The notes under the pieces are model-generated. The model made no database searches, was not told the origin of the DNA, and worked only from the letters and a program-made list of their open reading frames with translations. Of a stretch of DNA of 64,000 nt, positions 13,565 through 54,845 are shown piece by piece. The stretch lies in assembly GCA_016702505.1 (NCBI GenBank), contig JADJDU010000003.1, positions 256,265 through 320,264 of the forward strand. Direction: 5' to 3'. Made by a program: the position numbers and the translations under genes. Numbering within the stretch: position 1 is the stretch's first letter; each line of letters starts with the position of its first letter. This stretch comes from Microthrixaceae bacterium (lineage in GTDB: Bacteria; Actinomycetota; Acidimicrobiia; Acidimicrobiales; Iamiaceae).

Positions 13565-13640
13565 GGGCCACTAGCTCAATTGGCAGAGCATCGGACTTTT
13601 AATCCGCCGGTTCAGGGTTCGAGTCCCTGGTGGCCCACCA
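13565..13640 (+). tRNA. tRNA-Lys (anticodon UUU), with CCA encoded
   Basis: GGGCCACTAGCTCAATTGGCAGAGCATCGGACTTTTAATCCGCCGGTTCAGGGTTCGAGTCCCTGGTGGCCCACCA. Cloverleaf folds with a 7-bp acceptor stem, anticodon loop CTTTTAA and T-loop GGTTCGAGTCC. Close to canonical bacterial tRNA-Lys. Confidence 0.85.
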
Positions 13641-13645
13641 ACTCG

Positions 13646-13669
13646 AATCCCCTGCTCACGTAGGGGATT
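13646..13669 (+). terminator. perfect 8-bp stem-loop immediately 3' of tRNA-Lys (AATCCCCT-gctcacgt-AGGGGATT); tRNA terminator or att-associated inverted repeat
   Basis: Inverted repeat read directly from the sequence. No U-tract follows, so the function is uncertain. Confidence 0.3.
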
Positions 13670-13870
13670 TGGCCGTTCAGAGGCTCCTTCGCGGGAGGTG
13701 CATCAGGCCCACTTACGCGGTTCGCGACCGCGATGCACCCTCTGATGCACCTTCCGATGCACCGTTTGGCGGCGTACCCTGTTGTCCGGTGGTCGATGGC
13801 CTCCACCTCGTCATGGCCGTCCCAAACGTTGTTGCAGCGCCGCGGAGCGCTGGACGAAGGGACGAAGGCC

Positions 13871-15325
13871 ATGGCGAGATCGTTGGCGGAACGGTTCGAG
13901 GAGAAGGTCGATCGGACTGGTGAGCACCACCTGTGGCTCGGAGCCACGAACCCCGATCGGGGCACCGGGCGACTGAAGGTCGCTGGACGCAACATGACGG
14001 CGCACCGGGTTGCTTGGGAGATCGAGCACGGCGAGGCGCCGCCAGGCACCAAGGTGCTCCCGTGCCGGGTCGAGCCGAGGTGCGTCCGACCGGATCATCT
14101 GACTGTCGAGCACACCACCAGTGGTGCAGTGCAGCGGTCAGCTCGAGGTGGTGGCTCCAAGCGTGAGGTCGGCCCGGGCACCTGGGAGCTGGCAGCGTCT
14201 GCGGGCATCGGTTCGGATGGCAAGCCCAAGCGGGTGTTTCGCCGCGTGACCGGGACCAAGCAGGAAGCGGCCCGAGCCCTTGCCGCGCTCGTAGCCGAGG
14301 TCGGCGACGGCCGAGATGTTCCGGACCGCTCCCAGAAGGGCGTCACGGTGAAGCAGCTGCTCGACGGCTACCTCGATCACCTGCGCGATCACAAGGGTCG
14401 ACGTCACTCGACGCTGGTCCGCTACGGAGGTCTCGCCGAGCGTTGGATCGCCCCGCATCTGGGCAGCCGTGTCGCTGATCGAGTGCTTCCTGATGACGTC
14501 GAGCGGGCGCTCGGGGTCATGCGGGCTGCCGGGCAGAGCCAGAGCTCGATCCACCAGACGTTCACGTTGCTCAACGGCACGTTCAAGTGGGCTCGGCGCA
14601 ATCGGGTGATCAGCCGCAACCCGATGATCGAAGCCGAGGAGCCGAGGAGCACCGCGATTCGCCGCGAGGTCATCCCGCCCGACATCGAGTCGCTCCTGCG
14701 GCTGCTCGCCGCCGCGAAGGACGTCGATGCCGAGTTCGGGCTCCTCGCCCACCTCGGCGCGGTGACGGGTATGCGTCGTGGTGAGCTTGCCGGGCTCCGC
14801 TGGCGCGCTGTCGATCTCGAGGCCGAACGCATCGAGGTCGCGACGACGGTCAACGACGCTGGCGGCACCGTCGTGATCACCGACACCACCAAGACCGGCA
14901 AGCCCCGCCTGGTGGGCATCGACGCCCACACCGTCGGGATGCTCCGCTCGCACCGCCGCGGCATGGAGGAGCGCGCGGCGGCGTGCGGGACCGTGCTTGT
15001 CGAGGACGCGTTCGTCGCCAGCAGGTCACCCGACGGCTCCCTGCCGGTGCGCCCCGAACAGCTGTCCCGCAAGATGCTCCGGCTCCGCCGGCGGCTCGGC
15101 ATGGACGCCGCCAACTTCGACGCCACGATGCACGCCCTGCGGCACTGGGCCCAGACGACGCTCACCGAAGCCGGGTTCGATTCGCGTCAGATCGCGGATC
15201 GGGGCGGCCACACCGAGGCCCTGATGAAGTCGGTCTACATCCACCGCACCGACGAGTCCGAGCAGAGGATGACCTCCCATCTCGGGTCGCTGCTGGCAAC
15301 CCCGCCGAGCACTCCCGAGGGGTGA
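13871..15325 (+). CDS. int: tyrosine-type site-specific integrase with an N-terminal HNH_3/AP2-like DNA-binding domain
   Basis: C-terminal catalytic domain with ...HALRHWAQTTL... and ...SVYIHRTDESEQ (R-H-R-Y family). N-terminus HHLWLGATNPDRGTGRLKVAGRNMTAHRVAWEIEHGEAPPGTKVLPCRVEPRCVRPDHL fits an HNH_3/AP2-type arm-binding domain. RBS GAAGG before ATG 13871. Confidence 0.85.
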   Translation: MARSLAERFEEKVDRTGEHHLWLGATNPDRGTGRLKVAGRNMTAHRVAWEIEHGEAPPGTKVLPCRVEPRCVRPDHLTVEHTTSGAVQRSARGGGSKREVGPGTWELAASAGIGSDGKPKRVFRRVTGTKQEAARALAALVAEVGDGRDVPDRSQKGVTVKQLLDGYLDHLRDHKGRRHSTLVRYGGLAERWIAPHLGSRVADRVLPDDVERALGVMRAAGQSQSSIHQTFTLLNGTFKWARRNRVISRNPMIEAEEPRSTAIRREVIPPDIESLLRLLAAAKDVDAEFGLLAHLGAVTGMRRGELAGLRWRAVDLEAERIEVATTVNDAGGTVVITDTTKTGKPRLVGIDAHTVGMLRSHRRGMEERAAACGTVLVEDAFVASRSPDGSLPVRPEQLSRKMLRLRRRLGMDAANFDATMHALRHWAQTTLTEAGFDSRQIADRGGHTEALMKSVYIHRTDESEQRMTSHLGSLLATPPSTPEG

Positions 15326-15450
15326 ACAGGCGGGGCGTGTCGCAGATCGGGGACAAGGAATCGCGGTGAGTTCGCGATTTCTGCGCGGTTTTCGAGGCCT
15401 AGAGAGGCCTACGTAGGTAACGGGATCATCGCGCCCGTTCGGAGGTCACC

Positions 15451-15912
15451 ATGGCAGCCGAGCAGCTCACCCTCCTGGACCTCGCACCCGAGGTCACCGG
15501 ACCGAGGTCGGCGCGTCCGCGGGCGCGCCGAGCCGGACCCGCCAAGCCTGCGATCGCTGCGCGTTCGGACGCCAGGTCGGCCGAGCCGGTGGCGGGAGAG
15601 GTAGTGATCGAGCACCGCTACCCGCAGGCGCTCGAGTTCCTGCGCGAGCACGGGCCCGACGCGGTGGCGGTGCTGCACGTCCTTGTCGCCCAGGCCGACT
15701 CGGTCGACGGGCGGCTGGAGGTCGCGGCGAGCACCCGGGGTATGGCCGAGCGGCTCGGGTTCCTGTCCAAGGACAGCGCGCATCGGCGGCTGCGCCAGCT
15801 CAGCCGAGCCGGCGTCCTCGAAGCCCTGCCTTCGACGGGACCAATGGACCCACCTGCCTACGTGGTTCACCTCGACGGCACCGGCATCACCGTCACCCAT
15901 CCCTCCCGCTGA
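15451..15912 (+). CDS. winged-helix DNA-binding protein (putative relaxosome accessory/regulatory protein)
   Basis: GGAGG RBS 6 nt before the ATG. C-terminal ...AERLGFLSKDSAHRRLRQLSRAGVLEAL is wHTH-like. Confidence 0.55.
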   Translation: MAAEQLTLLDLAPEVTGPRSARPRARRAGPAKPAIAARSDARSAEPVAGEVVIEHRYPQALEFLREHGPDAVAVLHVLVAQADSVDGRLEVAASTRGMAERLGFLSKDSAHRRLRQLSRAGVLEALPSTGPMDPPAYVVHLDGTGITVTHPSR

Positions 15913-15970
15913 AGGAGCTACCCGTGACCGAACCGACTCGAGCGCAAGCGTCGCAGCGATCGACAGACGA

Positions 15971-18900
15971 GTGCACGAGCTCGTGCGGGGGTCGGTCGTG
16001 ACCGCCAGAGTGACCACGCTCAAGGGCCCCGATGCCGGCGCCTACTACGTCGACGGCCCCGGCCGGTACTACCTCGACGGCGACGAGCCGCCCGGCCGGT
16101 GGTTCGGCCGCGGCGCCACTGCGCTCGGCCTCGCGGGGGAGGTGGATGACGATGACTTCCTGTCCCTGATGGATGGCCGGGACCCGGCCAGCGGCGAGCT
16201 GCTGGGCACAAGGCATCACGAGCGAACAGTGCGCGGGTTCGACGTCACCTGCTCGGCCCCGAAGTCGGTGTCGGTCCTGTTCGCTATCGGAGACGACCGC
16301 GTCCGCAAGGAGGTCCTCGAGGCGCATGACGCTGCGGTCGCTGCGGCGTTCGGGTGGATCGAGGATCACGCCCACTGCCGGTATCGGGTCGATGGCGAGG
16401 TGTGGACCGTCGATGCCCGGGGCCTGGTCGCTGCCGCGTTCCGCCAGCACACCAGCCGGGCACATGATCCGCAGCTCCACACCCACCTGGTGATCCTGAA
16501 TCGGGTGATGGCCCCCGACGGCCGGTGGCTGGCGCTCGATGCGCGGACCCTGAAGCACGACCAGCGCACCATCTCCGCGCTCTACGCCGCGGGGCTGCGC
16601 TCGGAGCTGACCACCCGGCTCGGCGTCCGGTGGAACGAGGTCGTGAACGGTCAGGCCGAGATGGTTGAAGCCCCCGACGAGGTCCTCGACGCCTTCTCCC
16701 AGCGCACCCGCCAGATGGCCCGCCGCCTCGATGAGAAGACAGAGCGCTTCGTCGACAACCTGGGCCGACGACCCACGCCACGGGAGCGGTGGCGCATCGA
16801 ACGCGAAGCCGCCATCGACAGCCGACCCTCCAAGACCAGCGAGGACGCCCAGAGCCTCCACGAGCAATGGGCCGAGCAGCTCGACGCACTCGGCTACAAT
16901 TCATCCAGCTACCTGGAGCGGGTCGCCGGCCGCACCCGCGCGATCGAGGCCGACGCCACTACCGATCGGGACGCGGTCGTCGACGCGTTGTCCTCGCTAC
17001 GAGACACCCAGTCGGTGTGGCGCCCCGCCGAGATCACCCGCGAGATCGCCGCCGCACTGCCCACCCGCCTCGGCGGCACCGCCACCGAGACCGTCGACAG
17101 AGCGCAGCGGCTGGCGTCGCACGTCGAGGACGAGCTGACCGTCGACATCTCCCGACCCGTGCCCGGCAACATCCCGCTCCGCCAGGACGGGCGACCGGTC
17201 ACCGAAGGAGCCCTCGACCGCATCCTCACCACGAAGGCGATCCTCGACGAGGAGGGGCACATTCTCGACCTCACCCGCCGCTGGACGGCCGAAGGCGGCA
17301 GCGATGCGCAGGACCTGGACCCCGACGGCGAGCTGACCGCCGTGCAGAACCACGCAGCGGGCGCCGTCGCAGGAGAGCGACGCCTCGTGCTGGTCGTGGG
17401 ACCGGCTGGCACCGGCAAGACCACCGCCATGCGCCCCGCCGTTGCCCGACTTCACGCCGAGGGGCGACCGTGCTTCGGTGTCGCACCCTCGGCCGCGGCA
17501 GCGGAGGTGCTGGCGGTGGACACCGGGATGGATGCCGACACGCTCGACAAGCTCCTCATCGAGCACCGCCTCGAACGGCCGCCGCGCCATCGCTACGACC
17601 TCCCCGCCGGGACGACCGTCGTGGTCGATGAAGCCGCGATGGTGCCCACGCCACGCCTGGCCGAGCTGATCAACCTCGCTGAGCGACGTGGGTGGCGGCT
17701 CGCCCTGGTCGGTGACCCGATGCAGTTCGCCGCCGTCGGCCGCTCGGGCATGTTCGGCCACCTCGTCGACACCATCGGCGCCGTCGAGCTCGACCGGGTC
17801 CATCGCTTCGACGCGTCCTGGGAACGAGACGCCAGCCTCCGGCTCCGCCGAGGCGACACGGACGTCGTCGCCCTCTACAACAACCACGACCGGTTCCACG
17901 GCGGCACCGCCCGCCAGATGGCCACCGCCACCGTCATCGCATGGCGACGCGCCATCGAGGCCGGGGAGACCGCGGCGATGATGGCCCCGACCCGCGAAGC
18001 CGTCGCTGTCCTCAACGAGATCGCGCAACAGATCCGGATCGCCGCCGAAGAGGTCGAGCCGAAGAGCCCGTCGGTGAAGCTCGGCCCGACCCGGGCGCAT
18101 GTCGGCGACCTGGTCGCCACCCGACGCAACGACCGCACGCTGCTCACCGACCGAGGACGGATGGTCAAGAACCGCGACCACTGGACCATCCAAGCCGTCC
18201 ACGCTGACCGGTCGGTCACGGTCGCCGGGGCGACCGGACGCGTCACCCTGCCCGTCGACTACGTCGCTGGGGATGTCGAGCTGGCGTACGCCGAGACCAG
18301 CCACGCCACCCAAGGACGCACCGTCGACCGCTCCTTCCTCTACCTCGACGGCCCCGCCGACACCCGAGGCATCTACGTCCCACTCACCCGAGGCCGCACC
18401 GCCAACAAGGCCTTCGTCGTCCTGCGCGATGAGCGCACCGCCGCCGAGGTCATCGCAGAATGCGTCGCTCGAACTTGGATCGACCAACCCGCCACAGCAC
18501 TCCGCCGCGACCACGCCTCCGAGCCGTCGGATACGGGTAGGGGAAGAGGCCGCGGTGTGGCGGCCGCCCCCGCTGCCAGGCCTCGCCTGCCTCTACCAGC
18601 CGACGAGCTGCTGGACCTGGTACAACGCACCATCTGCCAACAGGCCGCCGCCGACAAGCACCAGGCCGTGCTCAAGGCCCACAAACAGAACCTCTCGAAC
18701 CTCGCCAGCTGGGCCCGTGAGGCCAACCGGGAGTACCGCAGCACCGTAAGGCGCCTGGCGGAAGCCAAGCGGATGCTCGCCGAGCACGACCGGCCGCTAC
18801 ACCGACGCCAACACCGGGCCGCGATCCGCCAAGCAAAGCAAGATGTAGCCGACCTACCCGGCAGACTCGACGCCCTGAACCAGGAACGCACCGACCTCGT

Positions 18901-19315
18901 GTCGAGACACGCCGCCGAGAAGAAGGCGCAACACCGAACGAACATCGCTGCGAAGGCCAGGCCCGAGAACTTCGCCGTCGACAGGACCGACGCCGCCATC
19001 GCCGACGACGCCCGCACCCGAGGCGAACGGATTGCAGCCGGCCCCGACCCGGTATACCTCGATCACCTCGGCCCCGTCCCCGACGCCCCGGAGGCGCGAG
19101 AACACTGGATCGACGCCGCCGGCAGAGTCGCCCAACACCACACCCTCTGGGGCCAGCCCACCGGGCCGACCTTCGTCGGCCACATGCCCACGTTCAACAA
19201 CGACGAGGACTATCGCCAAACCTTCTACGCCGCCAACCAAGCCATCCACGACCTCGACCGTACCGCCGGCATCCCCCATCGAGCCCAACAGTGCCCGGGC
19301 CTGGCGCTCTTATAA
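15971..19315 (+). CDS. MobF-family conjugative relaxase (TrwC/TraA-like) with C-terminal RecD-like helicase domain
   Basis: N-terminal relaxase motifs as in TrwC: YY..GxxYY, CSAPKSVSVLFA, HTSRAHDPQLHTHLVILN (3-His motif). Central Walker A VVGPAGTGKTT. Start is a GTG at 15971, 15998 or 16010, downstream of GAAGGAG. Confidence 0.85.
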   Translation: MHELVRGSVVTARVTTLKGPDAGAYYVDGPGRYYLDGDEPPGRWFGRGATALGLAGEVDDDDFLSLMDGRDPASGELLGTRHHERTVRGFDVTCSAPKSVSVLFAIGDDRVRKEVLEAHDAAVAAAFGWIEDHAHCRYRVDGEVWTVDARGLVAAAFRQHTSRAHDPQLHTHLVILNRVMAPDGRWLALDARTLKHDQRTISALYAAGLRSELTTRLGVRWNEVVNGQAEMVEAPDEVLDAFSQRTRQMARRLDEKTERFVDNLGRRPTPRERWRIEREAAIDSRPSKTSEDAQSLHEQWAEQLDALGYNSSSYLERVAGRTRAIEADATTDRDAVVDALSSLRDTQSVWRPAEITREIAAALPTRLGGTATETVDRAQRLASHVEDELTVDISRPVPGNIPLRQDGRPVTEGALDRILTTKAILDEEGHILDLTRRWTAEGGSDAQDLDPDGELTAVQNHAAGAVAGERRLVLVVGPAGTGKTTAMRPAVARLHAEGRPCFGVAPSAAAAEVLAVDTGMDADTLDKLLIEHRLERPPRHRYDLPAGTTVVVDEAAMVPTPRLAELINLAERRGWRLALVGDPMQFAAVGRSGMFGHLVDTIGAVELDRVHRFDASWERDASLRLRRGDTDVVALYNNHDRFHGGTARQMATATVIAWRRAIEAGETAAMMAPTREAVAVLNEIAQQIRIAAEEVEPKSPSVKLGPTRAHVGDLVATRRNDRTLLTDRGRMVKNRDHWTIQAVHADRSVTVAGATGRVTLPVDYVAGDVELAYAETSHATQGRTVDRSFLYLDGPADTRGIYVPLTRGRTANKAFVVLRDERTAAEVIAECVARTWIDQPATALRRDHASEPSDTGRGRGRGVAAAPAARPRLPLPADELLDLVQRTICQQAAADKHQAVLKAHKQNLSNLASWAREANREYRSTVRRLAEAKRMLAEHDRPLHRRQHRAAIRQAKQDVADLPGRLDALNQERTDLVSRHAAEKKAQHRTNIAAKARPENFAVDRTDAAIADDARTRGERIAAGPDPVYLDHLGPVPDAPEAREHWIDAAGRVAQHHTLWGQPTGPTFVGHMPTFNNDEDYRQTFYAANQAIHDLDRTAGIPHRAQQCPGLALL

Positions 19316-19681
19316 GCGGACCAGGTCGCTCAACCGGTCGACAGCCGGCTCCCGCATAGCCGGCGCTCTCCACCGCAAGAAGTGGGCCAGACTTTAGCAG
19401 CGCCCGAGACCATCATCGTTAGAAGCAGCCAAGCCACCCGCCCTGCGACGGAACACTTGCCCCCGAATGGGGCCAAAGGTCAAGCCTAGATCAGGCAACA
19501 CCGTCGATCTGATAATTGCCCCGCAAAAGATTTGACCGGCGCCGCAATCTGCGGCCGGCCGCCATGCTATGCGCCACACGCCGCCAACACGCCGGAATCG
19601 CTAGGAACCCGTCTCTGCCCTAGTTCCGCAACCTAAGAGCCGAGGACCGTGTCGCCGCCGACCTTCAGGAAGCGTGGAGCG

Positions 19682-20611
19682 TCATAAGAGATCGAAGTAG
19701 CCTCGGACCGAATGGTGGTCCGACATGCCCAGAATCGTAATTGTAGCGTTCCCCGCCGAGGCGGTATTGGGCCTCACAGCGTATATGTAATCAATCCCAG
19801 TGCCGCCGTCCGTTGTCGAGCGTTTCGGACTGGTTAGGTCAGCTTCTCGAAAGTCGGTCTGATACGAGCCTGGTAGACTAGCTCGGCCGCGATTTAGATC
19901 GCCCATTCCGAAGCGATACGTAGCAGTAGAAAAGATTGTGTAGTTATAGAAATCCGCCTCCTCTGTGGACCAGCCTCCGAAATGCGTGGAACATGAGTGG
20001 AAGGCGTTGAGGAACGCAGTCGTGTCTATGCAGACAATATTGGGCCAATGGTACGAGTCAGTACCCGCTGAATACGCTGCGCTTCCCTGACGAGCGGCGA
20101 GGGAGGAGGCGAACGTGAACCGACTCAAGACCTGGTTACCGTACTCCACGCGAGAAGAATTACCATCGAGTCGACAGTTTCCAGCTGCCGCGTTCCACGG
20201 GCGATGAAACTTCCACTCGTACCTTTGAGAGTAGCTTCCGTTCAAGTAATAAGCTAGAGAGAACGCCTGCGACAGGCAAAGCTCATTGAGAGAGATCGAT
20301 ATAAATTGCTCCGACACTGCGCGGGATCGAATGTACTCAATTTGGTCCAATCGCCGCGAATCGCTGCTATTCCCAATCAAGCCCTGCACGTTCCAGTGAA
20401 AGAACGCCGATTCAGTAGCCGCCCTTGACTGAGATGCGCCTGGCTGAGCCGCCTGCTCAACTGACGTTCCGGCACCATCCAGCCCCCGCTGCATTAAGGA
20501 CTCTGCATGCGCTGCTCGCGACGCTATTGGACCCAGCATTGTGACGACTGCAGCACAAGCAAGCGCCCCTCTCATAGCCGCTCTCACTCTAGAGGCCACC
20601 GAGGCCGGCAT
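19682..20611 (-). CDS. secreted endonuclease/exonuclease/phosphatase (EEP) family protein (nuclease or sphingomyelinase/phosphatase-like)
   Basis: Signal peptide (...AAVVTMLGPIASRAAHA). EEP motifs FHWNVQG (N-terminal WNV), catalytic-type Glu region ISLNELC and C-terminal GMSDHHSV (SDHxPV-like). Lower-GC gene. Confidence 0.65.
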   Translation of the reverse strand: MPASVASRVRAAMRGALACAAVVTMLGPIASRAAHAESLMQRGLDGAGTSVEQAAQPGASQSRAATESAFFHWNVQGLIGNSSDSRRLDQIEYIRSRAVSEQFISISLNELCLSQAFSLAYYLNGSYSQRYEWKFHRPWNAAAGNCRLDGNSSRVEYGNQVLSRFTFASSLAARQGSAAYSAGTDSYHWPNIVCIDTTAFLNAFHSCSTHFGGWSTEEADFYNYTIFSTATYRFGMGDLNRGRASLPGSYQTDFREADLTSPKRSTTDGGTGIDYIYAVRPNTASAGNATITILGMSDHHSVRGYFDLL

Positions 20612-21768
20612 CAGTTCCCACCAATCTCTATCAAATCGCGGTTGAGGCCGCCATCCAGGCCGAGCCGGAGGAGTACAGACTCAGAGACGGGAACCATTAC
20701 AGATACCTTCTGTGAAAGACCGGCGAGCTCTCTTGTAGTCCCACGGTCGGGATCAAACTCAAGCAAATTAGAACCATACGGAAGTGGCGTAGCAATGACT
20801 GAGTCGACGGTTGGCCAACTAAATGGTTGGAGGGCTCCGAATCCAGGGGCCAGCGATACTTCTGTCCAGACCCCTGACGAGATGTCAAGCACTGCGCCTC
20901 GAGTCGGAGACTCGGGTGGCCCCCATGGAATAATGACAACGTGGCTTTTCGTGCAATTTACCTTCAATCCCGTACCCGCGCCTGTCAAGATTTTGGGCGA
21001 GTTGCGGATGTCCGCCCATCTGCCATCTACGTCCAACACGGAAAGCTGAGTTGCGAGCTCCTCAGAACCTTTCGTATCAAACGGAAGCATCGCCGCTTCT
21101 CCAGAGGATGCGATCAAACGATCGCCCGACTGGCACAAAGAACCGCTTGTCTGCTCTATGGGAGTCCAACCATCAACAACTCTCTGAGCGTACTGTATTC
21201 CGGGACTTCCGTTTGAATTAGCATATCCCATTACAAGCCTACCGTAAGACGAGTTCAAACTAACATATCGGCCGACCATGGACATGTCTGCTAAGCCTGG
21301 CTCCGGTAGATCTAGGGCCCGTTCCTTGCCAGTAGTAAGATCGTATTCAAACAGACGGTACCCTCCGGGCTCACAGATAAACTGCCCTACGTCGTCGTAT
21401 TGGAACTCACCTACGCACGGAATACCAGCCAAGAAGAGCGATCGCCCGATTGCAGTCGCAACCGGCTCGGCTAAAGGTGTGCTCAGACTCAAGTTGTCCA
21501 CCACTTCCCCGTCTGAATTGAGTCGCACTCCAGAGCGCGTCGCAATGACGCCACCACCGGTGCGTTCGTGCCCAACAACAATTACCGCACCGCCATCGGC
21601 GAGAGGAACAGTGAGTGGATCCACTGTGCCTTCGGTGACCTTAATAAGATAGTCCCGTTCCGGGAGCTGATCACCGCCACTCGATTGACGGCTCGGCTCA
21701 ATCTGCTCCTGATCGCCACAAGATACGGTCCCCACAACCAGAACGCCCGCAGCGATAATCCGGTACAT
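20611..21768 (-). CDS. hypothetical secreted protein/lipoprotein (cargo gene, lower GC)
   Basis: N-terminal hydrophobic signal ending ...VVGTVSCGD (lipobox-like). No recognisable domain. Its stop overlaps the start of the EEP gene. Confidence 0.5.
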   Translation of the reverse strand: MYRIIAAGVLVVGTVSCGDQEQIEPSRQSSGGDQLPERDYLIKVTEGTVDPLTVPLADGGAVIVVGHERTGGGVIATRSGVRLNSDGEVVDNLSLSTPLAEPVATAIGRSLFLAGIPCVGEFQYDDVGQFICEPGGYRLFEYDLTTGKERALDLPEPGLADMSMVGRYVSLNSSYGRLVMGYANSNGSPGIQYAQRVVDGWTPIEQTSGSLCQSGDRLIASSGEAAMLPFDTKGSEELATQLSVLDVDGRWADIRNSPKILTGAGTGLKVNCTKSHVVIIPWGPPESPTRGAVLDISSGVWTEVSLAPGFGALQPFSWPTVDSVIATPLPYGSNLLEFDPDRGTTRELAGLSQKVSVMVPVSESVLLRLGLDGGLNRDLIEIGGN

Positions 21769-22372
21769 GGATCTGACGACCATTTCTTGAGTCCATTCAG
21801 TGCGAAGACGACCGGCACCGAGCACGATATCAGGCGCTGGCCTGCGCAGGCGGGTAGCTCCAGTCTCGACACATACCCGCTCTTCGGATCTGAGGGAGAA
21901 GTGATCGGCGGGTAGGGGTATCGGCTAGACCCCATCTGAAGGCCGACGTCGCTCAGAGCATCGGCATAGCCGAAGTACTGGCCAAGCGAGCCCTTGATCC
22001 TCTGGTCGACGTCGGCGTCGGTGCCGAGCCGCGCGGCATGACGTGCGCGTCGTTGGTGAGCCGCTGGTCTCGGTGGCGCAGCTCGACCGAGTAGCCCATG
22101 CAGCCCAGGGCCGGAGCGGACCACGTCATTCCGCGTCTTCTGGAGCAGCAGCCATACGGACCGGCTTCTCGGTCACAGGCACCCTGCTTCGGCCGCTCCT
22201 AACCCTTATATGGGGAGCGCCACCAGCCGCGCTCGTCTCGGGCAACCCTCCACCGCGTATCTCACCGCGTAGCTCGGTGGACCGGGGTGCGTCCAGAGGT
22301 ACAGAACAGACGGACTGCTTCAAGGGAACGGCAGGTCAGGGTACAGATCGGTACGCAATGGCACGCTGTTCG

Positions 22373-22424
22373 TCGGGCTTTTAATCCGCCGGTTCAGGGT
22401 TCGAGTCCCTGGTGGCCCACCAAC
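22373..22424 (+). repeat. attR: 52-nt direct repeat of the tRNA-Lys 3' half (TCGGGCTTTTAATCCGCCGGTTCAGGGTTCGAGTCCCTGGTGGCCCACCAAC)
   Basis: Identical to tRNA positions ~13594..13643 except for one base (G for A at the anticodon-stem position). Confidence 0.8.
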
Positions 22425-22807
22425 CGAGGTCGAAGCCAGGCCGCAAACTCGGCCTCACCCCAGATCCCGGATGCCACCGCGACCACCGCTTGCTCCGCGT
22501 CATCGATCGACGGCGAATCGACCCAGGTCCACTCGTTCAGCATGACGAAGTACCGCATGGCGACCCAGGCCACCCGCTTGTTTCCGTCTGGCAGGGGATG
22601 GTTCTTGGCCAGCCGGACCATCAGCACCGAGGCCTTGTCCACGAAATCCGGGTAGAGGTCTGATTGCCCGAACCCCGCCGCTGGAGCGTGCAGCGCCGAA
22701 TCTGCGAGATCCAGGTTCGCGACTCTCAGGACGGTGGTCCCGTCGAGCCCGGTGACCTCCTCGGCGATCGCGACGTAGTCGGTGAGGTCGAGGTATCTGA
22801 CGGTCAC
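22394..22807 (-). CDS. doc: type II toxin, Doc/Fic family (death-on-curing); annotated C-terminus runs into the att repeat
   Basis: Fic/Doc motif HPLPDGNKRVAWVAMRYF (HPFxDGNKR). ~126-aa core. Confidence 0.7.
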   Translation of the reverse strand: MTVRYLDLTDYVAIAEEVTGLDGTTVLRVANLDLADSALHAPAAGFGQSDLYPDFVDKASVLMVRLAKNHPLPDGNKRVAWVAMRYFVMLNEWTWVDSPSIDDAEQAVVAVASGIWGEAEFAAWLRPRLVGHQGLEP

Positions 22808-23013
22808 CTGGCCAGACGTTCGAGAAGTTGCCGGTCCTCCTCGACGATCTGACTGATCCGTGCCTTGAACTTTGGGTCCCGCCGCCTGCGCTCGACTGTC
22901 TCCCCGAGTGCTTCCTTCACCAGTTCGTTGACGCTCTTGCCCTCGACACGAGCCAGCGCCTCGGCGTCCGCGGCGAGGTCGTCAGGCAACCGAACGGTCA
23001 TGTTCCTAGTCAT
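22804..23013 (-). CDS. ribbon-helix-helix (CopG/Phd-like) antitoxin
   Basis: 69 aa: MTRNMTVRLPDDLAADAEALARVEGKSVNELVKEAL... is RHH. Overlaps the doc start by 4 nt. Confidence 0.7.
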   Translation of the reverse strand: MTRNMTVRLPDDLAADAEALARVEGKSVNELVKEALGETVERRRRDPKFKARISQIVEEDRQLLERLAR

Positions 23014-23302
23014 GGTGTCATGCTACTACGCCACCAACCTAGAACGAGGGGGCTTCATGGGCAGGACCAACGTTGAGGTGGCTCGAACAAGAGGTCGGGG
23101 CCCCGTGAACCCGGCCGCTACTTGCCGGTTCAATCGTTCTACCCACCTCGAGTAGTCCGCTGTCGGATTGCCCGAACGCCACCGCGTATCTCACCGCGCA
23201 ACTCCTTGGCACGAGGTGGGTCCAGGAGGGACGGAACGGGAGGAGCGGTCCAAGAGAACGGCACGTCATAGGACGAATCAGCACGGGACGACACGCTGTT
23301 CG

Positions 23303-23354
23303 TCGGGCTTTTAATCCGCTGGTTCAGGGTTCGAGTCCCTGGTGGCCCACCAAC
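23303..23354 (+). repeat. second direct copy of the tRNA-Lys 3' half (one mismatch, CCGCT vs CCGCC); remnant att site of an older tandem element
   Basis: TCGGGCTTTTAATCCGCTGGTTCAGGGTTCGAGTCCCTGGTGGCCCACCAAC. The ~130 nt to its left are also partly similar to the ~130 nt left of attR. Confidence 0.75.
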
Positions 23355-23732: not shown

Positions 23733-24410
23733 ATGCCAGAACCGTCGTTGCAGGACCAGGCCCGAGCGCTCGGCGATCCAACACGGCACTCCATTTTCCG
23801 ATACGTCGCCGACTCGCCCGTTCCTGTGGGTGTAGCCGAGTTGACCGATCACCTGGGCCTCAACCACAACGCCATCCGCCAGCACTTGGCCCGGCTGGTC
23901 GAGGCGGGGCTGCTACTGGAGAGGACGGCGCCGCCTACCGGACGGGGACGCCCACGGTTGCTCTACCGGGAGAACCCGAATGCAGACAGCAGGTGGGGCG
24001 TCACCGGCCCTTACGAGCGGCTGGCCATCCTTCTCGCCGAGGTGGTGCGGAGCGGCGACAGCCCTGAGGAAGTAGGTCGACGAGCCGGGCTCCGAACTGG
24101 AAGCTCCAACAGGTCTAGCCACCCAGACCCCATGACCGCATTCAGCGAGGAGATGGCCCGCCAGGGCTTCTCTCCAACCGTCGAGCGCAATGGGTCCGAA
24201 GCCACGGTGACCCTCATGAACTGCCCGTTCGAGTCCGTGGTTCCGGCCGACGCCGACACGGTGTGTGGCCTACACCTCGGGCTAGCCCGTGGCGTGGCCG
24301 AAGCGGTGGGAGGGCTCGAGGTGACCTCACTGGAAGCCCACGAACCGAAACGAGCCGAGTGCCGCCTCAGGTGCCATGTCGGAGACGCAACTGCGACGTC
24401 GGGGACGTAG
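23733..24410 (+). CDS. ArsR/SmtB-family HTH transcriptional regulator with C-terminal extension
   Basis: LGDPTRHSIFRYVADSPVPVGVAELTDHLGLNHNAIRQHLARLVEAGLL is an ArsR-type wHTH. Confidence 0.7.
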   Translation: MPEPSLQDQARALGDPTRHSIFRYVADSPVPVGVAELTDHLGLNHNAIRQHLARLVEAGLLLERTAPPTGRGRPRLLYRENPNADSRWGVTGPYERLAILLAEVVRSGDSPEEVGRRAGLRTGSSNRSSHPDPMTAFSEEMARQGFSPTVERNGSEATVTLMNCPFESVVPADADTVCGLHLGLARGVAEAVGGLEVTSLEAHEPKRAECRLRCHVGDATATSGT

Positions 24411-24923: not shown

Positions 24924-26103
24924 TCACCCGGGACCGTCTACAACCGCTTCCAGGACGCCGCGGTAACGCTCGCCTGCCACCGCCATCGAGAACCGGGCCG
25001 CGCGTAGACGTGCAGCCCGGCCCATGCCGTCAAGGCGCTCACGATCGGCCAGCAAACCCGACACCGCGTCGGCCATGGCGGTCACCTCGTGTGATGCGAG
25101 GACCAGCCCGGTCTCACCGTTGGCCACCACCGCGGCCACCCCGCCTACCGGGAAGGAGACCACCGGGCATCCAGCCATCTGAGCCTCGATCGCCACCCCC
25201 GGCATTCCCTCCCCGTCGCTGGTGAGGATCAACAGATCGATCCCACCTAGGACCTGCTCCACCTCTGACACATGACCCAAGAGGTGAACCCGTTCCGCCA
25301 GACCGGCCTTGCCGACCTGGAGCTTGACGGCACCCGACCGTGGCCCTTCCCCGCCATAACCAGGTGAACCTCCACGCCCCGCTCGGCCAGTGCGGCCACC
25401 ACCTCCACGGCCACGTCGGGACGTTTCTGGTCTCGAAGTGACCCACGAAGCCGACGAGCACGGCATCGGACGGCAAACCCAGGCGCGACCGCAGACGACC
25501 GGCCTCGAGTTCTCGGTCGATGGTGTCGAAGCGAACCGAGCTACGAGAGTTGGGAATCAGTTCGACCGGTCCTTCGAAGGCCAACGCCCTCACCTCAGCC
25601 GTCAACTCAGGTGTCAGCGAGATGATCGCATCGGTACGCCCGAACACCAATCGCCACCACCAGCGCCAACACCGGCCCCGCTCTGCCACCGGCATCCCCA
25701 TTATGAGCTGGTTGACCACCGGACGCCTCCGACCGCCCAACACCGCCACCTGCAACGCTGAGCCGCCGTGGGCCAGGATCACGTCGGCATCGGTAACACC
25801 GACAGCACGACGCAACCGGGCCGCCGCCAGGGCAATCGCCAGCGGGGACTGACGAACCGCTCCGGTCAGTACCGGCAGGTCGGCAACGGTTCCTCCCTCG
25901 TGACCCGGACCGACTGCCCAAAAGGAGCTGGAGTGGCCGAACCGCTCCAGCTCTCGAGCCAACTCCAACGCCACCAACTCGGCACCACGATGGTGACTGC
26001 GGCCGACGAGGTGGAGGATCCGCACGGCCGGGAGTCTGTCACGCGCACCCGGACCATCGGAGCGGGTCATACTCGCGTGCCGTGTCCACTCCCGACTGCG
26101 CAC
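24924..26103 (-). pseudogene. GT4 (group 1) glycosyltransferase disrupted by two frameshifts (~25425 and ~25345)
   Basis: N-domain in frame A (25114..26103 ORF: ...LVGFVGHFETR). The next ~28 aa are readable only in a third frame (KRPDVAVEVVAALAERGVEVHLVMAG). The C-domain is in frame B (..25466 ORF: EGPRSGAVKLQVGKAGLAERVHLLGHV...EGMPGVAIEAQMAGCPVV). Confidence 0.6.
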
Positions 26104-36129: not shown

Positions 36130-36187
36130 ATGCGCGTTCGCTGATAGCTTCCGCGCGTCGTCATCTGTCAAGGGGTAGATCCGCAAC

Positions 36188-39100
36188 ATGTATCCGTTCT
36201 GGGATATCGCTGTCGCGCCAGCGCTCAAGGCCGCCAAATCACGAAGGATCGTGGAGATCGGTGCCCTCCGTGGGGAGACCACGGCGTTCATGCTCGCCGA
36301 CCTCGGAGCCGACACCGAGCTTCACGTGATCGACCCTGTTCCGGTCTTCGATCCGTCTGAGCACGAGGAGCAGTTCCCTGGTCGCTACATCTTCCACCGC
36401 GACCTGAGCCTCAACGTCCTGCCCGATCTCCCAGCGGTCGACGCCGCCCTGATCGACGGTGACCACAACTGGTACACGGTGTTCAACGAGCTGCGGCTGT
36501 TGAGCGAGACCGCCCGCGCCGCCGAGGCCCCACTGCCGCTCCTGGTCCTCCACGACGTCGGGTGGCCCTACGGCAGGCGGGACCTGTACTACGTCCCCGA
36601 GCAGATCCCCGAGGAGTTCCGCCAGCCCTACGCCGCTCAGGGAATGCTCAGGGGCCAATCCGAGCTGGCCGAGCGAGGCGGGCTGAACCCCACCAACTGC
36701 AACGCCACCCACGAAGGTGGGCCCCGCAACGGCGTCATGACCGCGGTCGACGACTTCATCGATGGCTACGACCGGCCGCTCCGACTCGTGTTCCTCCCCA
36801 CCTACTTCGGGCTGGCGATCGTGGTCGAGGAAACGGTGCTAGAGGCGCACCCGGCGCTCAGAGACCATCTCGACTGGCTCGAAGGCAGGGATGGTCAGGC
36901 CGCCTTGGTCGAGATGACCGAGGCCTCCCGGCTCGACACGCTCGTCATGCAGCACAGCGTCTACTTCACCGACAAGGAGCGGAGCGCGGCGGCCGCCGAC
37001 CGCTACCTCGGGCTGCTGGAGGGCGCCCTCCTCAACGAGCACTACATCGAACAGGAGATCCGCATCAGCTACCTGCTGGAGTGCAGCGAGCGCGGCATCA
37101 CCCCTCGACCCGAGGCACTTCGAGACCCAGCCCGCCAGCTCACCGAGGAGCTCCAGCGCCTTCGTCGGGCCAGACACGCCGGCGATACCGTCGACGATGC
37201 CGGGCCTGTGGGTGCCGCGTTCCCCTACACCACCGTCGGGCGCCAGCACCTCCGCCACCTTGTCCAGCTTCTCGACACCATCCATGCCGAAGCGGTGACC
37301 GGAGACCTTGTCGACATAGGCCCAGGACGCGGCGGTACCTCCATCCTTTTCCGGGGATACCTCGAGGCCTACGCCATCGACGTGCCCCGGGTATGGGTGG
37401 TCGACCGGTTCCGAGCTCGTCCAGCGCCATCCGATGATCCTCGGGCGACGTCTGTCGGTCGAAGTGGCGACAAGCCTGTAGAGGCCCAGAGTGCCTGGGA
37501 AGTCGTGGGAGGACCGGGACTGCCGGAACTGCTCGGGGACCTCAACAGCGTTCGCGAAGGTTTCCATTCCTTCGACCTACTCGATGACCAAGTTCGGTTC
37601 GTGGCCGGAGACGACCTCACCGCCCTGGAAGCCGCTCCCATCGAACGGATTGCGTTGCTCCACCTGGGTGAACGGTCGGCTTTGGACGTTGCCGCTGCCC
37701 TTGATCTGCTCTACGACCGTCTGACACTGGGTGCATTCATTGTGGTCGACGACTTTGACGACCCCGACCGCCGGGCTGCGGTGGAAGCGGTCCGGGCCCG
37801 ACATGGGTCCGACGAGGAGATCGTCACCATCGACCACGGCACCGTCATGTGGCGCAAGACCGAGAGGTCCCAGGCCGAGCTCGATGCGGCCGACGGAGCC
37901 TTGCCATCCTCAGACGATCGACCCACCGGCCCCGTGTTGGCCCCAGCACGAGGCTGGTTCCCGACCGACCTAACCGTGGTCGTGGTCTTCTACAACATGA
38001 AGCGCGAGGCAGCCCGGACGTTGCATTCGCTGTCCCGGGCCTACCAGCAAGGTATCGACGACATCACCTACGACGTCGTCGTCGTCGACAACGGCTCGGC
38101 CCCCGACCAGAAGCTCGATCCGGCCTGGGTCCGAAGCTTCGGCCCGGAGTTCCGGTTCATAGACATGGGCAGCGATGCCAAACCGTCGCCCATCCCGGCA
38201 CTTAACCGCGGGATCGCCGAAGGCCACGGCATCAACTACGCCCTCATGATCGACGGTGCCCACGTCCTCACCCCTGGCGTCCTTCGCCACGGCCTGGCCG
38301 GCCTGACCACCTATGCCCCCGCCGTCGTCGCCACCCAGCAGTGGTATGTGGGCCCCGGACAACAGGCCGATCTGGTGGCAGAGGGCTACAACCAGAGTTA
38401 CGAAGACGTCCTCTTCGACAAGATCAACTGGCCCTCAGATGGCTACCGCCTGTTCGACATCGGCCACTTCATCGGCGAGCGAGACTGGTTCGACGGCATG
38501 TGGGAGTCGAACTGCCTGTTTGCTCCCCGCAGCCTCCTCGAACAGGTCGGAGGGTTCGACGAACGGTTCTCTATGCCCGGTGGCGGATACGCCAACCTCG
38601 ACCTCTACGAGCGACTCGGCGCCAGCCCTGACGTCACGGTGGTGACCATGCTCGGTGAGGGGTCGTTCCACCAGGTCCACGGAGGTACGACCACCAATCT
38701 GTCCGGTGACGAGAAGCGCCACAACACCCTGGCCGAGTACTCCCAGCACTACCAGGATGTTCACGGTCGCCCGTTCCGCGGCAACGCCAAACCGGTGCAC
38801 TACGTCGGGTCCATGCCCCGTGAGGCAGCCCGCACAAAGGCCCGCCGTCGGGTTTCGCCCAACATGTTCAGCCTTCATGCGCCCGACCAGGTCGGCGGAG
38901 TACCCGAGAAGGCATCACCGATGCCGCAGGACCTGTGGTCGGAGTTCACCGACGCCTACTGGCACACCCTCAAGTGGCGCCAGACCCATTGGATGGGTCA
39001 GCGATTGTCCAAGCTTCCTGGAGACATGGTGATCATCCAGGAGATCCTCACCAAGGTCCGGCCCGACTGGATCGTCCACACCGGCACCGCCAACGGTGGA

Positions 39101-39583
39101 CTGGACTGGTTCCTGGCCACGATCTGCGACCTGCTCGACCACGGTCAGGTCATCTCCATAGACCGCAAGCTGCACGAAGACCTTCCCCGCCACGATCGCA
39201 TCACCTACATCGAGGGCGAAGCCCACCTTTCCAAGGTGAACAAGCAGGTCACCGACCTGACCGGTCCCGATAGCCATGCCGTGGTCATATTGGGCACCAA
39301 GGCCAGCTCAGCACGGACTTCGGCCGAGTTCCACATCTACGAGGACCTGGTCCCCGAGGGGTCGTACCTGATCGTCGAGGACACGATCGTCGGTGGCCAC
39401 CCGGTGTGGGGCAACTTTGGGGTCGGGCCCTACGAAGCTGTCAAGGGCATCACCGAAACCAGGGGAGACTTCGTATCCGACACATCCCTGGAGAAGTACG
39501 GCCTGACGTTCAACACCACCGGCTACCTCCGGCGGATCAGCAAGGTCCAACACACGGCGCGCCGAAAAGGGCGCAAACGCTGA
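36188..39583 (+). CDS. giant four-domain enzyme: CmcI-like MTase / TylF-like O-MTase / GT2 glycosyltransferase / CmcI-like (rhamnosyl-O-MTase-type) MTase
   Basis: 1131 aa. aa 1-200: IVEIGALRGETT...LIDGDHNWYTV. aa ~340-560: LVDIGPGRGGTSILFRGYLEAY...VWVVDRF. aa ~600-850: TVVVVFYNMKREAARTLHSL...YDVVVVDNGS (GT2). aa ~930-1131: VIIQEILTKVRPDWIVHTGTANGGLDWFLA...VEDT (CmcI family). Confidence 0.85.
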   Translation: MYPFWDIAVAPALKAAKSRRIVEIGALRGETTAFMLADLGADTELHVIDPVPVFDPSEHEEQFPGRYIFHRDLSLNVLPDLPAVDAALIDGDHNWYTVFNELRLLSETARAAEAPLPLLVLHDVGWPYGRRDLYYVPEQIPEEFRQPYAAQGMLRGQSELAERGGLNPTNCNATHEGGPRNGVMTAVDDFIDGYDRPLRLVFLPTYFGLAIVVEETVLEAHPALRDHLDWLEGRDGQAALVEMTEASRLDTLVMQHSVYFTDKERSAAAADRYLGLLEGALLNEHYIEQEIRISYLLECSERGITPRPEALRDPARQLTEELQRLRRARHAGDTVDDAGPVGAAFPYTTVGRQHLRHLVQLLDTIHAEAVTGDLVDIGPGRGGTSILFRGYLEAYAIDVPRVWVVDRFRARPAPSDDPRATSVGRSGDKPVEAQSAWEVVGGPGLPELLGDLNSVREGFHSFDLLDDQVRFVAGDDLTALEAAPIERIALLHLGERSALDVAAALDLLYDRLTLGAFIVVDDFDDPDRRAAVEAVRARHGSDEEIVTIDHGTVMWRKTERSQAELDAADGALPSSDDRPTGPVLAPARGWFPTDLTVVVVFYNMKREAARTLHSLSRAYQQGIDDITYDVVVVDNGSAPDQKLDPAWVRSFGPEFRFIDMGSDAKPSPIPALNRGIAEGHGINYALMIDGAHVLTPGVLRHGLAGLTTYAPAVVATQQWYVGPGQQADLVAEGYNQSYEDVLFDKINWPSDGYRLFDIGHFIGERDWFDGMWESNCLFAPRSLLEQVGGFDERFSMPGGGYANLDLYERLGASPDVTVVTMLGEGSFHQVHGGTTTNLSGDEKRHNTLAEYSQHYQDVHGRPFRGNAKPVHYVGSMPREAARTKARRRVSPNMFSLHAPDQVGGVPEKASPMPQDLWSEFTDAYWHTLKWRQTHWMGQRLSKLPGDMVIIQEILTKVRPDWIVHTGTANGGLDWFLATICDLLDHGQVISIDRKLHEDLPRHDRITYIEGEAHLSKVNKQVTDLTGPDSHAVVILGTKASSARTSAEFHIYEDLVPEGSYLIVEDTIVGGHPVWGNFGVGPYEAVKGITETRGDFVSDTSLEKYGLTFNTTGYLRRISKVQHTARRKGRKR

Positions 39584-54400: not shown

Positions 54401-54696
54401 GTACACCGTGTACCAGTTGTGATCGCCGTCGATCAGCGCTGCATCCATGGCCGGCAGTTCACCGAGGACATCGACGCTCAGGGCTCGGTGGAACACGTAC
54501 TGACCGGCGAACTCCCGTTCATGCTCGGCGGGATCAAACGCCGGCTTCGGGTCGATCACGTGTAGCTCGGTCTCAGGCCCGAGCGTCTCGATGATCTGGC
54601 GGGTGTTCTCTCCCCGGAGGGCACCGATCTCGACCAGGCGTTTGACTCCGCCCGCCTCTAGCACGGGAGCGATGACGTCGTTCCAGAAGGGGAACA
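51416..54696 (-). CDS. giant four-domain MTase / MTase / GT2 / MTase enzyme, paralog of 36188..39583
   Basis: Track ORF 51416..55099 carries a spurious 134-aa N-extension. The real start MFPFWNDVIAPVLEAGGVKRLVEIGALRGENT... is about 70% identical to the paralog over the first 200 aa, with the same domain order through the CmcI-like C-terminus (VAYQEIISTVRPDWIIETGSKDGG). Confidence 0.85.
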
Positions 54697-54845
54697 TCGG
54701 CGGGGCGCGATTCCTTGACCGGGTTTGGGACGGGCGGACCCTAGCGCGGCGGGGAACGGGCGGGGCCGACGGCCAAAGAGCCGCACGGGTCACAGCTCCG
54801 GCCATTACCGGAGCCTTTCTGGTCGGGCGTGGTATCGATTTGGGG

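Follow-up and report, generated by a model that had tools for sequence, protein, structure and literature searches.

A tRNA-Lys(UUU) gene in a 64-kb stretch of the genome of a Microthrixaceae bacterium (GenBank assembly GCA_016702505.1, contig JADJDU010000003.1, positions 256,265 to 320,264; hereafter the window) is followed by genes for an integrase and a relaxase and by further copies of its own 3' end, which raises the question of what kind of mobile element occupies this site, how far the inserted DNA extends and by what means it could be transferred. The locus very probably comprises a canonical relaxase-bearing integrative mobilizable element (IME), a class also termed 'iMOB' (PMC11389934), here called element A (13643-22424; an 8.8-kb unit), and a decayed relative, segment B, which lies in tandem with it at the same tRNA-Lys(UUU) gene. 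Element A is bounded by att repeats, is absent or located elsewhere in relatives, encodes its own recombinase and contains genes neither for mating-pair formation (MPF) nor for a type IV coupling protein (T4CP), all of which are characteristic of IMEs. Repeats, RNA genes and GC content were computed on the window, while loci fetched from other genomes are designated by L-numbers.

The integration target, tRNA-Lys(UUU) (13565-13640, forward strand; Rfam tRNA, 68.8 bits), is the sole tRNA gene detected by ARAGORN in the window, and no other RNA family was matched by Rfam between 13000 and 24000. A repeat search and junction alignment identified three forward-strand copies of a 52-nt att core. 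Copy 1 (attL; 13591-13642) extends from the anticodon stem of the tRNA to 2 nt beyond its 3' end; the 3' part of this tRNA now comes from the element. Copy 2 (22373-22424; 51 of 52 positions shared with copy 1) serves both as the attR of element A and as the left boundary of segment B, and copy 3 (23303-23354; 50/52) forms the outer right boundary of the insertion. A preliminary description of this stretch, made from the sequence letters, had recognised the intact tRNA-Lys(UUU), here recovered by both ARAGORN and Rfam, and had proposed that a 52-nt repeat closes the element at 22373-22424. This placement stands for element A but not as the end of the inserted DNA, as the third copy had been missed; with copy 3 at 23303-23354, the inserted DNA therefore reaches 23354, not 22424, and spans 13641-23354. 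According to ARAGORN and Rfam neither copy 2 nor copy 3 is a tRNA gene, and the repeat is accordingly not a second full tRNA. A fourth candidate att copy (24227-24241) was rejected, being a 15-nt match inside an ArsR gene that is syntenic with the corresponding gene in the relative described below.

The closest relative genome (L001), with approximately 81% amino acid identity in the flanking genes, contains an empty site. Here, a CysS-like gene and, further along, CLC, MarR and tRNA-Lys(UUU) genes are followed directly by genes for a small membrane protein (TM81), ArsR and a globin, the same genes that lie 3' of att copy 3 in the window. Since the tRNA-Lys of L001 is joined directly to these genes, 13641-23354 is an insertion, and the region between the repeats is not conserved in all relatives, in agreement with the mobile IME proposed in the preliminary description. 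A scan with the flanking CLC channel protein (one genome per species) places the host in the Acidimicrobiales. The GC content is 0.68-0.73 in the backbone of the element and 0.53-0.59 over 19500-21750, compared with ~0.65 in the flanks. Two single-nucleotide polymorphisms distinguish the att copies: a CCGCTGG variant is common to copy 3 and the empty-site tRNA of L001, which fits its being the ancestral state, while an attP-type G at repeat position 5 is common to copies 2 and 3. These two polymorphisms, read against one relative of another species, are suggestive of a crossover that lies between positions 5 and 18 of the repeat, in the region of the anticodon loop.

Two further loci carry the integrase, winged helix-turn-helix (wHTH) and relaxase genes of element A at tRNA-Lys genes. 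In L098, DNA identity of 91% begins 5 nt before tRNA-Lys(UUU) and continues through all three genes, and its left flank encodes a two-component system as opposed to the CLC and MarR genes of the window. In L087 the identity is 86%, starting at the tRNA, which here is a tRNA-Lys(CUU) gene located beside a tRNA-His gene. These near-identical copies in other surroundings, together with the empty site, indicate that element A is, or recently was, mobile. A megablast comparison of the whole island with the PLSDB plasmids gave no match. A search of viral contigs returned no member of the wHTH family, a result that speaks against the element being a phage or phage satellite.

The three backbone genes of element A are all encoded on the forward strand. 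The tyrosine integrase (13871-15325; 484 aa) starts 230 nt 3' of tRNA-Lys, matches Pfam Phage_integrase (3e-15) and phrog_1 (PHROG integrase; 2e-48) and contains the catalytic R...HxxR...H...Y motifs in its translation, and its start at 13871 is backed by 484-aa orthologues in L087 and L098 that are 88-92% identical. Its N-terminal ~95 residues (13871-14160) match HNH-endonuclease PHROGs (E 4e-16 to 2e-13) with the HNH catalytic His and Asn substituted (VLPCR...CVRPDHL), so that this degenerate HNH domain most likely serves to bind DNA, possibly at the arms. The next gene (15451-15912) encodes a 153-aa protein with no match in PADLOC or PHROGs, for which the AF2 (AlphaFold2) model shows a winged-helix fold with pLDDT values of 86-91 over residues 60-145. 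As a conserved partner of the relaxase, it is probably a relaxosome accessory factor or regulator. The third gene (15983-19315) codes for a MobF (TrwC-type) relaxase with a superfamily 1B (SF1B) helicase of 1110 aa, matching TrwC (3e-81; 273 bits), AAA_30 (5e-50) and the NCBIfam MobF model (236.4 bits against a cut-off of 100); a protein identical to it (P0001) was retrieved in the homologue search. When aligned with TrwC (PDB 1omh; domain E 5e-37), Y21 and Y29 correspond to TrwC Y18 and Y26, and the HTH of the histidine triad (motif III) is kept, with the first His shifted by one residue in the pairwise alignment. The helicase motifs, a Walker A GPAGTGKT and a DEAA box, are present in the translation, and a C-terminal tail of ~300 aa carries no annotated domain. 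By these profiles and motifs the predicted protein belongs to the MOBF family. The integrase within 230 nt of the tRNA, the wHTH gene after it and the TrwC-type relaxase/helicase of ~1.1 kaa named in the preliminary description are thus all upheld by profile matches or, for the wHTH protein, by the structural model.

DNA homology common to all family members extends from 15337 to the relaxase stop codon, and the block at its upstream end (15337-15382, forward strand) is a candidate origin of transfer (oriT) or operator. It consists of the 20-mer GTGTCGCAGATCGGGGACAA (15337-15356) followed by a hairpin (15356-15382). The conserved form of this 20-mer, GTGTCGCAnATCGGnGACAA, is located ~95 nt upstream of the wHTH gene, occurs in one copy per element and is single-copy in L081, L082, L084-L087, L089 and the window, where 0.01 copies are expected by chance. 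In the group of relatives inserted at tRNA-Leu a perfect 8-bp inverted repeat precedes the 20-mer, and an inverted repeat directly 5' of the conserved DNA that precedes the operon resembles the IR2-nic layout of the R388 oriT. A promoter and terminator scan yielded nothing above chance.

No genes for a type IV secretion system (T4SS), a coupling protein or an FtsK-like protein were found among the five annotated open reading frames (ORFs) of the element or the 30 further ORFs scanned in the window, and no Rep domain was found in any ORF of the element. Searches by tblastn with the T4CP, VirB4-like, SCO6880 and T4SS proteins of a plasmid from Iamia yielded no match across the window and 44 family loci (0.5 Mb in all), and T4SS and T4CP genes are likewise absent from the Pfam-annotated neighbourhoods of eight relaxase clusters. 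The lack of a T4SS and coupling protein claimed in the preliminary description therefore holds for both element and window. The locus accordingly possesses neither the T4SS of an integrative conjugative element (ICE) nor the FtsK/TraB-like translocase and Rep protein of an actinomycete ICE (AICE). As no transfer gene was matched inside any family element, the family would, by its gene content, be helper-dependent.

A possible helper is present in the cultured strain Iamia sp. SCSIO 61187, which has a 20.9-kb family member (L086) at a tRNA-Leu gene in its chromosome and a 34-kb plasmid (NZ_CP050950.1, unnamed2; L129) with a MobF relaxase. The plasmid region 15652-33078 encodes a VirD4-type T4CP (T4SS-DNA_transf, TraG-D_C, TrwB_AAD_bind), an AAA_10 ATPase, an SCO6880-family protein, a 'type IV secretion system protein' and an SLT/VanY cell-wall hydrolase. 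The closest plasmid relaxases are ~30-35% identical to the window relaxase, and one of these is on the Iamia plasmid. This gene content indicates that T4SS conjugation with MobF relaxases exists in the Acidimicrobiia and makes the plasmid a plausible helper candidate for L086. The plasmid is typed as 'non-mobilizable' by PLSDB/MOB-suite, and is probably a misclassified actinobacterial conjugative plasmid.

Segment B (22425-23354) is a 930-bp unit between att copies 2 and 3 that contains a toxin gene, an antitoxin gene and a right arm. The toxin, encoded on the reverse strand (22394-22807; 137 aa), is a Doc protein of the Fic family (Pfam Fic, 3e-11; DOC_P1, 1e-06; Doc-like PHROG, 5e-17) with the motif Hx[FL]xD[GA]NKR present as HPLPDGNKR. 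A 69-aa ribbon-helix-helix (RHH) antitoxin (22804-23013, reverse strand; RHH_1, 6e-06) is encoded by a gene that overlaps the doc start by 4 nt, and the predicted operon fits a Doc-type type II toxin-antitoxin (TA) system. RHH genes with 44-48% identity are present in L086, L094 and L115, those of L086 and L115 forming a pair with a Doc gene. Homology to the Doc proteins of these latter two loci stops at about residue 128, which coincides with the boundary of the att copy 2 core (22424/22425), suggesting that the last ~9 codons of doc are encoded by the att core and replace the original C-terminus. Segment B is a decayed relative in which the integrase and relaxase have been lost and the Doc/RHH module, the right arm and both att cores have been kept; flanked by att cores and devoid of recombination and transfer genes, it resembles the remnants known as cis-mobilizable elements (CIMEs). 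The deletion that produced segment B has its endpoint exactly at the att core, a hint that an integrase may have mediated it.

The arms of the att sites contain short repeats. The left arm (13697-13763, with no strand assigned) carries GGTGCATC at 13697 (inverted), TACGCGGTT at 13714, which is an inverted near-copy of CACCGCGTA, and three copies of GATGCACC at 13732, 13744 and 13756, a spacing of 12 nt. The same array occurs in L087 and L098 with three to four GATGCACC copies at 12-nt spacing. The right arm of element A (22250-22372, forward strand) has two copies of CACCGCGTA at 22251 and 22263, again 12 nt apart, and that of segment B (23179-23302, forward strand) has CACCGCGTA and CACCGCGCA. 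The ~123 nt upstream of att copies 2 and 3, from 22250 and 23179, respectively, are ~82% alike, and exact CACCGCGTA copies in the window are restricted to these two right arms. The arm repeats, confined as they are to the att arms, are candidate sites for arm-type binding of the recombinase or for a recombination directionality factor (RDF). The right-arm pattern CACCGCGTAnnnCACCGCG was not found in the other loci; among the loci fetched for the tRNA-Lys group, none besides the window extends as far as the right end. Just 3' of the tRNA, an inverted repeat (13646-13669, forward strand) forms a hairpin, AATCCCCT-N8-AGGGGATT followed by T's, which is kept in L087 and L098 and may represent a tRNA terminator supplied by the element.

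A survey of the neighbourhoods of eight relaxase clusters (52-85% identity) and 31 metagenome loci places element A within a wider family. More than 3000 relaxase homologues were retrieved at E <= 1e-10, the closest being ~1100 aa in length, and the wHTH-relaxase core is encoded in more than 40 Acidimicrobiales loci; besides the integrase type of the window, two more accompany it, one at tRNA-Leu and the other at tRNA-Ala. The constant core consists of ~115 nt of conserved upstream DNA, the wHTH gene and the relaxase gene, whereas the integrase, the tRNA target and the cargo vary. The HNH-like integrase type is found at tRNA-Lys in the window, L087 and L098, while at least 10 loci have a divergently transcribed Arm-DNA-bind_4 type at tRNA-Leu(GAG), and a third type is found at tRNA-Ala in L096. 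The tRNA-Leu elements with clear attR repeats are 13.3, 15.6 and 20.9 kb in size. Where cargo was examined, the relatives encode Type III CBASS (cyclase, HORMA, TRIP13 and 4TM effector), BREX (BrxC, PglX and PglZ), Azaca (ZacC), GmrSD/NsnA with HEPN, a ThsA-like SIR2 protein, restriction-modification (R-M) pairs, and TacAT and Doc/RHH toxin-antitoxin pairs. The family is widespread, mostly carries anti-phage defence genes and appears to be undescribed.

A small ORF of 59 aa (YRFTLTVxVEPGHxAxDDPEWAADAAWGxLTNEYGLRA) recurs 3' of the relaxase gene in several elements (L081 14973-15152, L083 5470-5649, L086 18387-18566 and L094 15719-15898, all on the reverse strand) and is absent from the window element. 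A 61-aa ORF at 19394-19579 of the window was rejected as a gene, as it is not homologous to this conserved ORF. Insertion sequences (IS) were also observed: an rve-type IS (L094 6265-9198) splits the integrase gene of L094, where a 52-aa Arm-DNA-bind_4 fragment is left, and an IS21-like insertion in L085 (20478-22321) is absent from the otherwise identical L084. IS-mediated decay thus occurs among members of the family.

The mode of action inferred from this gene content would be as follows. The integrase would recombine the att cores, with the crossover in or near the anticodon-loop segment, to release a circle of element A alone or of A and B together. The relaxase, aided by the wHTH protein, would then nick its cognate oriT, probably within 15337-15382, and the DNA would be unwound by its own helicase domain. 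The complex of relaxase and single-stranded DNA would be passed to the VirD4-type coupling protein and T4SS of a co-resident conjugative plasmid or ICE of actinobacterial type. In the recipient, the strand would be recircularised and integrated at tRNA-Lys, whereby the 3' end of the tRNA would be restored and the downstream hairpin supplied.

Other explanations of the locus have to be weighed against a helper-dependent IME. The missing transfer genes could be the outcome of decay, with the element being a now immobile former ICE that lost its T4SS and coupling protein by deletion or through replacement with the low-GC cargo. Deletion decay has affected segment B at the same site, the cargo is compositionally foreign and IS insertions are present in some relatives, including inside the L094 integrase gene. 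The minimal T4SS-less layout is, however, shared by every related locus examined (eight clusters, and 44 loci by tblastn) and is therefore the normal state of the family rather than a one-off loss, and the three backbone genes are intact, with 86-91% identical copies at other loci; a decayed ICE is consequently considered very unlikely. Alternatively, the relaxase could act mainly as a rolling-circle replication initiator for the excised circle, with spread by transformation, vesicles or transduction. ICEs such as ICEBs1 are known to replicate by means of their relaxase, the window relaxase has its own SF1B helicase in an element without a coupling protein, and no experimental work on conjugation in the Acidimicrobiia was found in the literature. 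Among actinobacterial plasmids, however, MobF relaxase-helicases are the usual relaxases of conjugation: the matching plasmid records number at least 5000, and of the 5000 that were counted 4299 are typed as conjugative. Furthermore, a plasmid with both T4SS and T4CP is co-resident with a family member in Iamia, and a search of viral contigs yielded no family member. This second explanation is considered unlikely, although replication and mobilization are not mutually exclusive.

The least likely of the alternatives is that the whole 9.7-kb composite (13643-23354) constitutes the mobile unit, with att copy 2 as an internal site and Doc/RHH as its own addiction system. The occurrence of RHH genes near the right end of other members, paired with Doc in L086 and L115, would be in keeping with such a unit, the outer att copies could recombine, and accretion composites of an ICE or IME with a CIME excise both ways in streptococci (PMC5704250). 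Against it, the TA operon is inverted relative to that of L086, the duplicated right arm is only 82% identical and the 3' end of doc is replaced exactly at the att copy 2 core boundary, the latter two of which point to two separate integrations followed by deletion rather than one designed unit. Excision of the composite is compatible with an IME accompanied by a decayed relative, as both excision products would be possible.

Several observations weigh against the reading of element A as a helper-dependent IME. The empty site is known from one relative only, of a different species, and neither an attP junction nor an excised circle was found in a scan that covered the viral-contig collection only. 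The oriT is a conserved block only, with hairpin stability significant in one of the five sequences folded. Nothing similar to the candidate oriT 20-mer was found on the Iamia plasmid, and there is thus no sign of oriT mimicry of that helper. No recognisable excisionase was found in element A; more distant relatives carry an Xis-like HTH_17 gene and a shorter wHTH homologue. Finally, no helper is known for the window host, whose genome was seen over 64 kb only.

The cargo of element A is a two-gene operon on the reverse strand located 3' of the relaxase gene, with the GC content of 0.53-0.59 that windowed GC analysis gives for this region, in line with the two lower-GC genes for secreted proteins in the preliminary description. 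The upstream gene (20611-21783) encodes a 390-aa lipoprotein of no recognised family, and its stop overlaps the start of the second gene (19682-20611), which codes for a 309-aa secreted enzyme. The latter scores 27.1 bits against Pfam Exo_endo_phos (PF03372; gathering cut-off, 24.5 bits), and its motifs N74, E110, GDLN (237-240) and SDHH (297-300) are invariant in the three known homologues, indicating membership of the endonuclease/exonuclease/phosphatase (EEP) superfamily. Both families are nearly orphan: the three EEP homologues derive from a word-indexed search of 5.8 billion proteins, and the lipoprotein has 10 representatives among 1.84 billion proteins. The lipobox Cys is present in all seven of the lipoprotein homologues inspected. 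Lipoprotein and EEP genes occur together wherever they are found, namely in L090-L093 and on a JGI contig (sample 3300048101). These contigs are short, high in GC (0.63-0.77, against 0.53-0.59 for the window copy) and without visible mobile-element genes. As the pair is of high GC elsewhere, its low GC is therefore particular to the window copy or its lineage. Neither cargo protein matches PADLOC or PHROGs, sequence and profile searches of the PDB gave nothing usable for either, and the AF2 model of the EEP enzyme, built on a three-sequence alignment, has a pLDDT of 33 and no usable fold. The best guess, held with low confidence, is a nuclease or phospholipase activity at the cell surface. That the cargo is aimed at the host or a competitor, as had been suggested in the preliminary description, is still speculation because both families are nearly orphan.

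Canonical IMEs such as NBU1 and Tn4555 of Bacteroides (PMC5704250, PMC11389934) resemble element A in that a tRNA-gene att site is duplicated as direct repeats, and in that they are small, encode both a tyrosine integrase and a relaxase of their own, the latter presumably next to its oriT, carry no MPF or T4CP genes and vary in cargo, with TA or R-M modules. They differ in that element A combines a TrwC-type MobF relaxase with fused helicase, an unannotated wHTH partner and an acidimicrobial host. According to a 2017 review (PMC5704250), MobF and MobH relaxases were then unknown from canonical IMEs, and only one actinobacterial IME was listed there; IMEs with MOBF (traACD) have since been catalogued in Mesorhizobium (PMC8627217). 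The latter are likewise chromosomal, encode a MOBF relaxase and accessory factors without a T4SS, use tRNA sites and are as small as ~5.8 kb; they are, however, proteobacterial, with a Ti-type TraA, TraC/TraD accessory proteins and a divergent oriT layout, and neither the accessory proteins nor the hosts are related to those described here. TrwC of R388 and TraI of F (PDB 1omh, 5n8o) share with the window protein the relaxase domain, the equivalents of Tyr18 and Tyr26, the HTH of the His triad and the C-terminal SF1B helicase, but the window protein has an offset first His and an undomained tail of ~300 aa, and is encoded in an integrated element without T4CP or T4SS. Segment B can be compared with the CIME arrays of Streptococcus thermophilus, such as ICESt1/CIME (PMC5704250; definition in PMC10201445), as it has att sites on both sides, contains genes neither for recombination nor for transfer and stands in tandem, at one tRNA gene, with an intact relative. 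In contrast to these arrays it measures only 930 bp and contains just Doc/RHH, with doc fused to the att core. No paper on relaxases or IMEs of the Acidimicrobiia was found in the literature. Element A would work by a well-understood, conventional principle, and the conceptual gain is modest.

Downstream of the insertion, the window contains a glycan biosynthesis cluster. A glycosyltransferase of the GT4 family (24924-26103, reverse strand) is split into two overlapping frames, with the N-domain at 25114-26103 and the C-domain at 24924-25466, and is either a frameshifted pseudogene or the product of an assembly error; L001 matches both parts. Two paralogous giant enzymes, combining Methyltransf_24, TylF, GT2 and CmcI/rhamnosyl O-methyltransferase domains, are encoded at 36179-39583 (forward strand) and 51416-55102 (reverse strand). 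They are surrounded by a large cell-surface glycan cluster with a radical-SAM protein, several TylF methyltransferases and dTDP-sugar enzymes.

Experimental genetics is almost absent for the Acidimicrobiia, which include Microthrix, Iamia and relatives that inhabit wastewater, soil and marine sediment. An element so compact and clearly bounded, which combines integrase, att sites and candidate oriT with a relaxase and its partner protein, would offer a practical start for mobilizable vectors, and in the cultured strain Iamia sp. SCSIO 61187 a family member and a candidate helper plasmid are found together. The balance tips slightly towards the view that element A belongs to an abundant, undescribed and Acidimicrobiia-specific lineage of MobF IMEs without T4SS or T4CP, in which a wHTH-relaxase-oriT core swaps integrases and serves as a main vehicle of defence systems in this largely uncultured class, riding the T4SS of actinobacterial plasmids, and in which the window copy instead carries a near-orphan lipoprotein/EEP operon with maybe a new surface-acting function. 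The family shows the movement of defence systems in the Acidimicrobiia and extends the MobF relaxase-only IMEs to the Actinomycetota.

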